Below are positions 45,989 to 47,330 of a stretch of 64,000 bases of DNA, one piece after another. The DNA is from a virus: positions 25,431 through 89,430 of the IMG/VR virus record IMGVR_UViG_3300005263_000012, one strand, 5' to 3'. Both the position numbers and the translations under genes were made by a program. How positions within the stretch are numbered: position 1 is the stretch's first letter; each line of letters begins with the position of its first letter. The notes under the pieces were generated by a model. The model searched no databases. It saw only the letters and a program-made list of their open reading frames with translations, and was not told the DNA's origin.

Positions 45989-46318
45989 CTACACAAATTC
46001 AACTTTTTTTCTAGGCAGTAACCTTACAGGGTTATCCCCTGGCTTAATGTAAGTAAGACCACTCACAACAGACCACCATTGGATATCTAGCGCGAGTGCA
46101 GCAAGCAAAGTCTCATTGAGCTTTCCATAAATGGTCAAATCAAATTGAACATCTTCTTCGGGCGCATATAGAGATTTTAAATACTCAACTATACAGTCTT
46201 CAATCGCGTATGCATCCGAAACGCTATAGTAACGTTTTTCAAATTTGCCCGGGATTGTGTCACCAATTCCCTGAGAAACATCCTCTTTTAGTCTGAAGGT
46301 TACTTTTTTCACTACCAT
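45989..46318 (-). CDS. Hypothetical protein
   Basis: GAGGAG RBS; downstream of the tRNA cluster. Confidence 0.6.
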   Translation of the reverse strand: MVVKKVTFRLKEDVSQGIGDTIPGKFEKRYYSVSDAYAIEDCIVEYLKSLYAPEEDVQFDLTIYGKLNETLLAALALDIQWWSVVSGLTYIKPGDNPVRLLPRKKVEFV

Positions 46319-46379
46319 ACTTCACTCCTCTGAAAAATCCGTTTTAACAAGCTCACATTTTTATATTATTAATGAGCAA

Positions 46380-46451
46380 ACTCCTATGAGGATTCGAACC
46401 TCAGCCTCCAGAGCCAAAATCTGGAATCATTGACCGCTAGACGATAGGAGT
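46380..46451 (-). tRNA. trnQ: tRNA-Gln(UUG), no encoded CCA
   Basis: ACTCCTA TC GTC-TAGCGGTCAAT-GAT T CCAGA-TT[TTG]GC-TCTGG AGGC TGAGG-TTCGAAT-CCTCA TAGGAGT; full cloverleaf; A1:U72 pair as in archaeal tRNA-Gln. Confidence 0.92.
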
Positions 46452-46466
46452 AATAGGCTTATAGTA

Positions 46467-46495
46467 GGGCTCTAATTGTTCGTGGATTAGAGCCC
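46467..46495. other. 10-bp hairpin upstream of the tRNA
   Basis: GGGCTCTAAT-9 nt-ATTAGAGCCC. Confidence 0.8.
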
Positions 46496-46497
46496 AT

Positions 46498-46561
46498 CCG
46501 TTTTTACGTAGTCTAAAATCCCGTTTTTCCACGTAATTTTTTAAAACCCGTTTTTTACGTA
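46498..46561. repeat. Three imperfect direct repeats CCGTTTTT(N0-2)ACGTA
   Basis: Copies at 46498-46510, 46521-46535 and 46548-46561, separated by 10-12 nt. Confidence 0.8.
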
Positions 46562-46580
46562 ACTTTCCCTTTGTGGGAAT

Positions 46581-46640
46581 TAGCCGGAGTCTGATTCGAA
46601 CAGACATTCTCTTTCGAGCGATTACTTATCTTATCCCGCT
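46581..46640 (-). ncRNA. 60-nt anticodon-less mini-cloverleaf tRNA-like element
   Basis: AGCGGGA TAA GAT-AAGTA-ATC G CTC-GAAA-GAG AAT GTCTG-TTCGAAT-CAGAC TCCGGCT A. Confidence 0.6.
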
Positions 46641-46744
46641 GTGTTGACCCCGGAAGATCGGGGAGTTCAACAACGATCTAGTGTTCTTTCGCACGGTCTG
46701 AAATATAGGTCTGAAATTAACGTTTTTAAGGGCGTTATCCCAAA

Positions 46745-46873
46745 AGCCACGTGAGGGACTTGAACCCTCATCAACCGGGAAGAGATTGGTTTCACAGGTT
46801 CGGACTATATGGGAATTCTTAGGGGATGTTACAGTGGGCGATATTATGGCTGATTCATCCTTCTTGTCGTGGC
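46745..46873 (-). ncRNA. tRNA-like acceptor/T-arm stack enclosing a 97-nt insert
   Basis: GCCACG ...97 nt... TGAGGG-TTCAAGT-CCCTCA CGTGGC T (6+6 bp). Confidence 0.45.
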
Positions 46874-46951
46874 GCTTGTGGGCATTATTTCAAATGCCCT
46901 TTTCGGAGGTTTGATATTTGACAGAGTTTTTCTACGAGAGGTGGTTCATGT

Positions 46952-46987
46952 TGGAGCCGTCCATAAGAATTGAACCCACTAGACGGC
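46952..46987 (-). ncRNA. 36-nt tRNA minihelix with encoded CCA
   Basis: GCCGTCT A GTGGG-TTCAATT-CTTAT GGACGGC T CCA; starts 1 nt after the stop codon of 46989..47330. Confidence 0.6.
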
Positions 46988-46988
46988 A

Positions 46989-47330
46989 TTACGCTATGAT
47001 ATACTCAGTTTTCCTCGCAATTTCAATATGAGGGATATACCCGCACGATTCGCAGAACACCCTACTCAATATGAAAAGGTAGTTCTCATCGAGCTTTTGA
47101 TATTCAGAGAAATCGTCAATATGACTCTGACAATTCTCACTAAGTTCAGCGATAAAAACCGGCCAAATCTCCCCTAAATCTTCTCTGCGGTGAACATCTT
47201 CCAATACGTCATCGTGCCAACGGCGAACTTCATTTACCTGTTCAATAGGGCCTATGTAATTCACCCCAGCTTCTTCACACAGGAAGACTCTGACTTGATT
47301 AGGGGACTTTGCTACAAACTGAACTCTCAT
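46989..47330 (-). CDS. Hypothetical protein with C-terminal CxxC
   Basis: ATG directly after the upstream stop; FCESCG. Confidence 0.6.
   Translation of the reverse strand: MRVQFVAKSPNQVRVFLCEEAGVNYIGPIEQVNEVRRWHDDVLEDVHRREDLGEIWPVFIAELSENCQSHIDDFSEYQKLDENYLFILSRVFCESCGYIPHIEIARKTEYIIA

Follow-up and report, generated by a model that had tools for sequence, protein, structure and literature searches.

Within a window of 64,000 nucleotides (nt) of DNA, taken from the virus record IMGVR_UViG_3300005263_000012, we have identified a row of three anticodon-less tRNA-like modules, termed E1, E2 and E3, together with one real tRNA gene, tRNA-Gln(UUG). The row begins directly downstream of open reading frame (ORF) ORF113 and runs on the same strand. 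Equivalent loci are present in about 11 viral lineages, in which the helices of the modules have been maintained by compensatory changes. The modules are therefore selected non-decoding RNA genes, not decayed tRNA genes. We propose, with a probability of about 0.5, that the 620-nt stretch is a tRNA-punctuated, tRNA-scaffolded small-RNA operon in which the single real tRNA is an optional member.

A row of tRNA-like modules

The window derives from a 101,744-bp (101.7-kb) IMG/VR record that is rated complete by CheckV. An initial annotation, made from the letters of the window alone, had pointed to four T-loop hairpins in about 620 nt, each with a strand able to pair as an acceptor stem, and with cores of 1, 97 and 28 nt plus a full-length tRNA-Gln. 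We find precisely this arrangement on the minus strand between 46379 and 46987. Within the 610 nt past the ORF113 stop codon each T-arm hairpin is directly followed by 7 nt that pair with an upstream 7-mer. The cores are those of the following four elements, given in 5' to 3' order on that strand.

46952-46987, minus strand: E1, comprising GCCGTCT, A, GTGGG/TTCAATT/CTTAT, GGACGGC, T and CCA.
46745-46873, minus strand: E2, a 129-nt RNA comprising GCCACGA, 97 nt, GAGGG/TTCAAGT/CCCTC, ACGTGGC and T.
46581-46640, minus strand: E3, 60 nt comprising AGCGGGA, 28 nt, GTCTG/TTCGAAT/CAGAC, TCCGGCT and A.
46379-46451, minus strand: tRNA-Gln(UUG), canonical, with A1-U72 and no encoded CCA; called by ARAGORN and by Rfam (56 bits).

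The clustering of these four hairpins on one strand is far beyond chance. The complete genome has 13 5-bp stems closing TTCRANN loops on its two strands, compared with 6.0 +/- 2.4 in dinucleotide shuffles. Four of the 13 fall within 620 nt of one strand, where the density would lead us to expect about 0.02.

ARAGORN and Rfam agree with the earlier expectation that only tRNA-Gln would prove canonical. It is the sole tRNA called by ARAGORN in the whole genome, with the intron option on or off, and the program finds no transfer-messenger RNA (tmRNA) there. E1, E2 and E3 receive no ARAGORN call and no match to the tRNA clan of Rfam at E<=10. If a canonical tRNA is taken to have a D arm, an anticodon arm with a 7-nt loop and a score above the Rfam gathering threshold of 29 bits, then none of the three is one. 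What the modules have is a 7-bp acceptor stacked on a 5-bp T stem, with the G53-C61 pair and the U54-U55-C56-R57-A58 loop. The T loops conform to UUCRANU, except that E3 of three relatives has UGCAAAU. The half retained is thus the acceptor/T-arm part that is recognised by RNase P, tRNase Z and the CCA-adding enzyme, as had been noted in the initial annotation.

The longest stop-to-stop frame across the stretch is 87 codons. A 111-residue gene has been called by JGI on the opposite strand across E1 and E2 (L016:2346-2678, corresponding to window 46641-46973, plus strand). It contains three in-frame stop codons under translation table 11, and we therefore regard it as a gene-calling artefact that hides the RNA genes.

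Equivalent loci in related viruses

Seven homologs of ORF113 with 61-88% identity were found in a large protein collection, and six more distant ones by profile search. In each of the contigs that carry them (L002-L011, L016 and L020-L024) the homolog is immediately followed by 280-780 nt devoid of genes. L016 represents this same virus, recovered from another metagenome and without any difference across the locus. The remaining contigs represent about 10 further lineages, giving about 11 in total, a small sample of which several are closely related. The array is conserved downstream of the ORF113 homologs in these lineages (L002-L011 and L020-L024), and divergence within the ORF113 family reaches E = 1e-27 to 7e-11 in the profile search. 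The related viruses come from anaerobic digesters and wastewater.

Searches of other collections did not extend this set. Comparison of the locus with 50,697 phage records by blastn gave no match, and nothing similar was found in IMG/VR using both flanking proteins, by protein alignment, or a DNA pattern. A pattern scan of metagenomes for the locus found no match, and a scan of genome contigs returned only the contig of L003, the most divergent relative. That contig has been placed in a 'Bacteroides sp.' metagenome-assembled genome bin, and is probably misbinned viral DNA; it opens with a gene carrying Hint/intein domains (L003:1-1203).

E2 is a conserved structured RNA derived from a tRNA

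E2 is present in every lineage for which the region has been sequenced (10 lineages), with a tRNA homologue at its position in L021-L023. Its parts in this virus, all on the minus strand, are the following.

46867-46873 with 46746-46752: acceptor, in which six of seven pairs form, with a mismatch at 7:66.
46855-46866: J1, with the conserved motif YAAGAUGGAUGA.
46848-46854 with 46770-46776: P3, an anticodon-stem-like helix.
46777-46847: G-poor insert, the loop closed by P3.
46753-46769: a perfect T arm.
46745: N73, the discriminator.

All three helices change in sequence between lineages and continue to pair. The acceptor is found as GCCACG/CGUGGC, GCCAUAU/AUAUGGC, GCCGUAU/AUACGGC, GCCACA/UGUGGC and GCCAGAA/UUCUGGC, and the T stem has seven different sequences. 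In P3, 6-7 nt located about 12 nt past the acceptor pair with the 6-7 nt that immediately precede the T stem, for example AUCAGCC/GGYUGAU, UCUGCA/UGCAGA, CAGUCAC/GUGACUG, UCAAUCA/UGAUUGA and GAAUCA/UGAUUC. In a curated alignment of eight lineages, anchored by hand on the T loop, 96% of the cells in 19 base pairs are paired, and 15 of these pairs exhibit double-sided changes. None of 500 partner shuffles matched this, and sliding the partner strand by 1-3 columns left just 32-40% paired. P3 is the least independent of the three helices because its register was chosen by hand. RNAalifold applied to a raw MAFFT alignment recovered the acceptor, P3 and most of the T stem, with compensatory changes in 8 of 15 pairs.

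Some positions do not vary. G1-C72, C2-G71, C3-G70 and G53-C61 are unchanged across 11 lineages, while acceptor pairs 4-7 vary freely. The nucleotide at -1 is U in 10 of the 11 and that following N73 is U in all of them; N73 itself may be U, G or C. The insert is 55-97 nt in length with a sequence that differs by lineage, and is always G-poor (7-14% G, about 30% C and 25-40% A). Given this composition it is likely to be largely unpaired, so that P3 probably closes a single-stranded loop. A pseudoknot between GGAUG of J1 and CAUCC of the insert was considered. The sequences are conserved in most lineages, but 38-84% of shuffles reach a 5-bp duplex and the interaction is not established.

The origin of E2 is indicated by L021-L023, contigs of one lineage. 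In these the slot, defined by an upstream hairpin (H1, with loop UUCUCC) and a CCAAGU leader, is occupied by a 76-nt cloverleaf with a normal D arm. Its acceptor, GCCGUAA/UUACGGC, is close to the GCCGUAU/AUACGGC of E2 in L003. Since a full cloverleaf holds the same slot, we conclude that E2 descends from a tRNA. P3 is accordingly the old anticodon stem, the insert stands in place of the anticodon loop, and J1 is the remnant of the D arm, the pairing of which E2 has lost in most lineages. The cloverleaf (L021:1677-1752, L022:1219-1294 and L023:632-707) is itself unusual. It has an aberrant anticodon loop, of either 9 nt or 7 nt without U33 and R37, is labelled 'tRNA-Stop(UUA)' by ARAGORN, and scores 46.9 bits with Rfam. 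It could be a suppressor, a quadruplet reader or another non-decoding mimic.

E1 is a minihelix adjoining the stop codon of ORF113

E1 is the simplest module. In this virus it has an outer stem of 7 bp (6-7 bp across the lineages), a 1-nt linker, and a 5-bp T-like stem, with three G.U pairs, closing a UUCAAnU loop; its folding z score is -3.8. It begins 1 nt after the TAA stop codon of ORF113. The distance from the stop is 1-3 nt in this virus, L002, L007 and L009, about 10 nt in L008 and about 18 nt in L020 and L024. This leaves little or no room for a promoter, and E1 is therefore probably contained within the ORF113 transcript.

The module is present in seven lineages, and is missing from L006, from L004, L005, L010 and L011, from L003, and from L021-L023. 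RNAalifold gives 11 pairs, of which 7 have changed on both sides. The outer stem has been completely replaced, being GCCGUCU in this virus, CCAUCU in L008 and L009 and AUGAGAU in L020 and L024; despite this turnover the linker and the loop are retained. The encoded CCA (3' UCCA) and the 1:72 pair are confined to this virus, and are not found in its relatives.

The third position and the tRNA gene

The acceptor of E3 forms 6 of 7 pairs, as 3 + 3 bp around a G.G mismatch (4:69). RNAalifold folds the RNA as a miniature cloverleaf, with a small D-like hairpin (GAU/AUC), a CUC-GAAA-GAG hairpin and a perfect T arm (46589-46605). It carries UAAGAUAAG, which is related to the J1 motif of E2. E3 occurs in five lineages with limited covariation, whereby pair 7 changes from AU to GC and T-stem pair 2 from UA to CG. 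Together with the flanking hairpins H3 and H4 (see below), 7 of 34 pairs are compensatory by RNAalifold. The covariation support for E3 is thus weaker than that for E1 and E2.

In other lineages the slot of E3 holds different anticodon-less tRNA-like genes. L004 and L005 have a 58-nt tRNA, which we term X, with an intact D arm and no anticodon arm, that scores 45-47 bits with the Rfam tRNA model. Its T stem differs between these two contigs by two compensatory pairs (GCGGG/CCCGC and GTAGG/CCTAC), and both sequences still pass the tRNA threshold. In L003 an acceptor is joined to a T arm by a 12-nt linker, and L020 has a 35-nt core.

The tRNA-Gln is also found in L004, L008, L009 (where it is cut by the end of the contig) and L020. 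It is missing from L006 (L006:2370-2390) and from a contig of run X3, its exact extent being replaced by a few A/T bases. Since the gene can be cleanly absent, while E2 or its tRNA homologue is always present, the real tRNA is an optional member of the array.

A fifth tRNA-like RNA lies outside the window in the same genome (G000:C1:21509-21624, minus strand, equivalent to L019:1212-1327). Over 116 nt it folds into a 7-bp acceptor (GCUGGCG/UGCCAGU, in which two of the pairs are G.U), two arms in the interior and a T arm that pairs perfectly, GGUGG/UUCGAUU/CCACC. This RNA is located about 150 nt downstream of a TnpB-like ORF (PF07282, 81 bits) and is not called by ARAGORN. The second TnpB copy in the genome has no DNA similarity to this locus.

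Spacers, hairpins and repeats between the modules

The sequences between the modules contain hairpins and repeated motifs, listed here for the minus strand.

46874-46951: spacer 1, G-poor, with CCUCC (anti-Shine-Dalgarno-like) motifs, then H1, then ACAAGY right before E2.
46880-46899: H1, a hairpin in spacer 1 with a covarying stem.
46730-46741: H2, a small GGG...CCC hairpin 3-4 nt past the discriminator of E2, with covarying stems in 8/8 close lineages.
46721-46727: AAAAACG after H2, a copy of the locus motif.
46643-46673: H3, UUGAAYUCCC-loop-GGGUCAAC with a 3-nt bulge, 2-3 nt upstream of E3; 12 pairs by RNAalifold, 2 of them compensatory.
46565-46579: H4, a UUCCC-ACAAA-GGGAA hairpin directly past E3; 5 pairs, 2 of them compensatory.
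46497-46562: three direct repeats of TACGTRRAAAAACGG, carrying AAAAACG(G).
46467-46495: H5, a 10-bp hairpin 15 nt upstream of tRNA-Gln; the z score of this spacer is -3.6.

CCUCC is present one to three times between E1 and E2 in every lineage (homologous spacers of L002-L009, L020 and L024), often as NCCUCCGA. On the plus strand of the genome there are 56 copies of CCTCC in 101.7 kb, corresponding to one per 1.8 kb. The motif is partly single-stranded, and in several lineages it lies within hairpin loops. The virus has strong GGAGG ribosome-binding sites at a minimum of 26 ORFs (i.e. >=26), and the CCUCC spacer may be a small RNA that masks Shine-Dalgarno sequences. A more specific pairing of CCUCCG with a 'CGGAGG' class of viral ribosome-binding sites was rejected, as C before GGAGG is not enriched at gene starts (8/26 versus 21/79).

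AAAAACG has 36 copies genome-wide, of which four are in the locus, and it recurs in all the related loci. There a GC-rich palindrome often comes next after AAAAACG(G), with a tRNA or tRNA-like gene beyond it; in this virus AAAACGG also precedes ORF109, the next gene downstream (46339-46345). We rejected AAAAACG as a general viral promoter, since there are just 36 copies and these are not tied to gene starts. Within the locus AAAAACG(G) may be a promoter element or an operator, or it may stop antisense transcription by means of its T-runs on the opposite strand. GC-rich equivalents of H5 precede tRNA-Gln or a tRNA-like gene in L004, L008 and L020. H3 is among the best-conserved sequences of the locus. 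Its bulge is ACU or AUU, it is kept in lineages without E3 (L003 and L021-L023), and by inspection it is neither a k-turn nor a strict bulge-helix-bulge.

The virus, its probable host and the flanking genes

The virus encodes a full MCM helicase (284 bits), for which the 19 matches among the 50,697 phage records are all from archaeal viruses. The best match of its TerL is to a Methanomicrobiales tailed virus (41%). Taken together these two proteins indicate that the genome is that of a tailed virus of archaea, and its hosts are probably methanogens. The sequence was found in wastewater and anaerobic-digester runs. The host machinery of relevance is therefore that of archaea, comprising RNase P, tRNase Z and a CCA-adding enzyme of class I. 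No CCA-adding enzyme, NTP_transf_2 domain, RtcB or reverse transcriptase was found in the virus genome.

The array is near the start of a long minus-strand block, in which ORF51, ORF113, the RNAs and ORF109 are followed by thymidylate synthase, dTMP kinase and MCM. It is divergent to a plus-strand block that includes the terminase and portal genes. The two flanking genes are as follows.

46989-47330, minus strand: ORF113, a 113-residue protein with conserved C-x2-H ... C-x2-C, directly upstream of the array in every lineage.
45989-46318, minus strand: ORF109, the next gene downstream, on the same strand.

ORF113 has no Pfam or PHROG match, and its Atlas matches are below significance. The AlphaFold2 (AF2) model has a predicted local distance difference test score (pLDDT) of 57 and is unusable.

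Proposed processing of the array

The initial annotation had suggested that the modules act as tRNA-like processing signals. RNase P and tRNase Z favour substrates with U at -1, G at +1 and U past the cleavage site. The same context is seen in the conserved U(-1)|G(+1) junction and in the U that follows N73, which is compatible with cleavage by these enzymes and with this part of the suggestion; the encoded CCA of E1, being unconserved, does not support it. The layout is also that of t-element or mascRNA-type punctuation, with acceptor/T-arm modules of conserved structure bordering other RNAs and E1 abutting a stop codon. Archaeal RNase P and tRNase Z can cut tRNA-like elements and release the RNA between two of them (PMC4946936).

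On the proposed mechanism the array would most likely be co-transcribed with ORF113 and ORF109, which have the appearance of early genes and the same direction. Host RNase P would cut at the U|G junction at the 5' end of each module, and the cut at E1 would set the 3' end of the ORF113 mRNA. tRNase Z would cut after N73, before the conserved U. The products would be a CCUCC spacer RNA that includes H1, the hairpin-bearing spacers, and CCA-tailed E1, E2 and E3. E2 might then serve as a natural tRNA scaffold, in which P3 displays the G-poor, C/A-rich loop on a CCA-tailed body that would be expected to resist nucleases and to present the loop to any target.

RNA-library data are provided by a single 151-nt Logan contig of depth 2.9 from an anaerobic-digester metatranscriptome, covering 46709-46859, with nothing else on 19.9 kb. 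It suggests, though weakly, that E2 RNA is abundant. The public runs consist of assembled contigs only, without ends or strand, and three of the 'RNA-Seq' runs are probably DNA.

A number of observations weigh against the operon of processed small RNAs. The 151-nt contig runs 36 nt past the predicted tRNase Z site, and so could be a precursor or DNA carry-over; since it spans this site, it speaks neither for nor against processing. Internal promoters might be provided by the AAAAACGG motifs, in which case the modules would be separate genes. A search of the virus genome for antisense targets of the spacers and of the C-rich loops of E2 gave matches at chance level only. Lastly, a plain minihelix such as E1 would be enough for punctuation, and hence J1, P3, the insert and the GCC/GGC end of E2 argue for an RNA function of its own.

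Alternative explanations

The last of these points leads to the alternative that survives best, which in part overlaps with the operon that we propose. The tRNA-like RNAs could be effectors, i.e. stable, CCA-tailed, non-decoding mimics that occupy or mislead a host protein. The candidate targets are a defence nuclease or nucleotidyltransferase toxin acting at the acceptor end, a synthetase, a modification enzyme or an elongation factor, with RNase P and tRNase Z required for maturation only. The conservation exceeds what processing would need, in that the first three pairs of the E2 acceptor are invariant while pairs 4-7 vary, and that J1 is conserved with a related motif in E3. X retains a complete D arm and elbow, several anticodon-less designs have been maintained at the third position, and E2 is universal where the real tRNA-Gln is dispensable. 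Against this, no partner protein has been identified, and the variable discriminator of E2 speaks against a single aminoacylation identity. Furthermore, the best-known tRNA-directed defences are anticodon nucleases, for which RNAs without anticodon loops cannot be decoys. On balance we regard an effector role as a tentative possibility. A specific form of it is a shade more doubtful, in which E2 and the CCUCC spacer mask Shine-Dalgarno sequences or act as a sponge for a G-binding factor, and E1, E3 and X titrate an enzyme or defence protein of the host by which the acceptor and T arm are recognised.

The other explanations are improbable even when combined. The array might be a feature of the DNA, either attachment (att) relics of the 3' halves of host tRNAs, or an origin or packaging region with iterons and palindromes. 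Integrative elements do carry tRNA 3' ends, and the locus has direct repeats (AAAAACGG) and several palindromes. However, there is no match to a tyrosine integrase (PF00589) in the genome. Moreover, the 5' acceptor strand of each T arm covaries with the 3' strand, for which att relics have no need, and the G.U pairs and strand-specific T-loop sequences point to selection at the level of RNA. A DNA-level role is thus very unlikely.

Decay has slighter prospects still. The modules would in that case be neutral pseudo-tRNA relics of a former viral tRNA cluster, and they are indeed tRNA-derived elements beside a real tRNA, with single mismatches in E2 (7:66) and E3 (4:69) and the three G.U pairs in the T stem of E1. 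The initial annotation had argued that they are not randomly decaying tRNAs, and had accepted that homologous loci without compensatory change would tell against it. The loci of about 11 lineages show the reverse. The acceptor, T and P3 helices have many compensatory changes that affect both strands, across lineages in which the flanking protein has diverged to the extent given above. Pairing in E2 is 96%, compared with 32-40% for the slid-partner controls, and the architecture of E1 has outlived the replacement of its entire outer stem (GCCGUCU here versus AUGAGAU in L020 and L024).

It is just as improbable that the modules are decoding tRNAs of a non-canonical archaeal kind (intron-containing, split or permuted), or that E2 is tmRNA-like. 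Disrupted tRNA genes are a common feature of archaea, to which the host belongs. Yet a bulge-helix-bulge scan of nine loci gave scattered weak matches, none of them conserved at E1-E3. Neither a D arm nor an anticodon loop could be recovered in these modules, and the ARAGORN intron and tmRNA options and the Rfam search at E<=10 were negative. The topology of E2 is that of the tRNA-like domain of tmRNA, with a 7-bp acceptor, an unpaired D-loop analogue, a long-range helix before the T arm and a 3' acceptor strand. It differs in having an invariant C3-G70 in place of G3.U70, and an insert that is too variable and stop-rich for a tag frame, and in its size of about 115-150 nt compared with about 350 nt. 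SmpB was found neither in the virus nor in four archaeal control genomes, and we know of no trans-translation system in archaea. Identity as Y RNA or YrlA was rejected, since the virus genome has no TROVE (Ro/Rsr) domain and the modules no Rfam match.

Comparison with known tRNA-like RNAs

In plant mitochondria cleavage of t-elements by RNase P and RNase Z makes the 5' and 3' ends of mRNAs and releases a small t-element RNA (PMC1920247). The likeness to the viral modules lies in the GGTTCRANYCC T-arm motif with an acceptor stem, and in their position adjoining coding regions, E1 being 1 nt past a stop codon. In contrast to the array, t-elements are organellar and scattered singly, and have no large structured insert such as that of E2; their processing has been mapped experimentally.

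Murine gammaherpesvirus 68 has a row of non-aminoacylated tRNA-like genes (TMER/vtRNA), each with hairpins downstream; tRNase Z detaches the tRNA-like portion from these small RNAs. This too is a row of tRNA-like genes and hairpins in a DNA virus. However, the TMERs are RNA polymerase III units with microRNA-precursor hairpins and full cloverleaves including anticodon arms, and they have no sequence relation to the array. In the archaeon Haloferax volcanii a natural tRNA-like element upstream of 5S rRNA is reportedly cut by RNase P and tRNase Z, although this is a single element of an rRNA operon. Engineered release of CRISPR RNA in the same organism (PMC4946936) uses the mechanism that we propose, but in a laboratory construct and not a conserved viral array.

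Phage T4 encodes RNAC and RNAD ('species 1 and 2', PMC3014915), which are likewise small stable RNAs of unknown role beside real tRNA genes. They are encoded by a bacteriophage, and the comparison is by description only. E2 may also be compared with an engineered tRNA scaffold (PMC3753655), in which a foreign RNA replaces the anticodon loop on the anticodon stem and is processed and protected by tRNA enzymes. The scaffold is an artificial Escherichia coli tool, and E2 is moreover without D-arm pairing in most lineages. In its function the array appears to resemble t-elements, TMERs and mascRNA-type punctuation, yet by our comparison it is a member of none of these families.

Implications

In a survey of 10,006 candidate structured RNAs of viruses, the only mention of tRNA-related RNAs is of 'tRNA or tRNA-like' models overlapping with calls by ARAGORN (PMC10690425), and in our search of the literature we found no report of tRNA-like RNAs in archaeal viruses. 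Because the standard tRNA finders miss the modules, it is probable that similar genes are under-annotated. The modules also provide ready-made parts for RNA expression in methanogens.

If the modules are effectors, they would imply that methanogen viruses engage their hosts in a tRNA-directed manner not known so far, and would amount to an RNA-based system of counter-defence or host take-over that has not been described for any archaeal virus. If they are processing handles, the array would be the viral, archaeal counterpart of mitochondrial tRNA punctuation and of the herpesviral TMERs, and a natural version of the tRNA scaffold. Non-coding RNAs in archaeal viruses have hardly been explored. 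In the present case selection maintains, across a viral group, an entire operon of non-decoding RNAs derived from tRNAs, and some members of the group have lost the real tRNA and retained the mimics.

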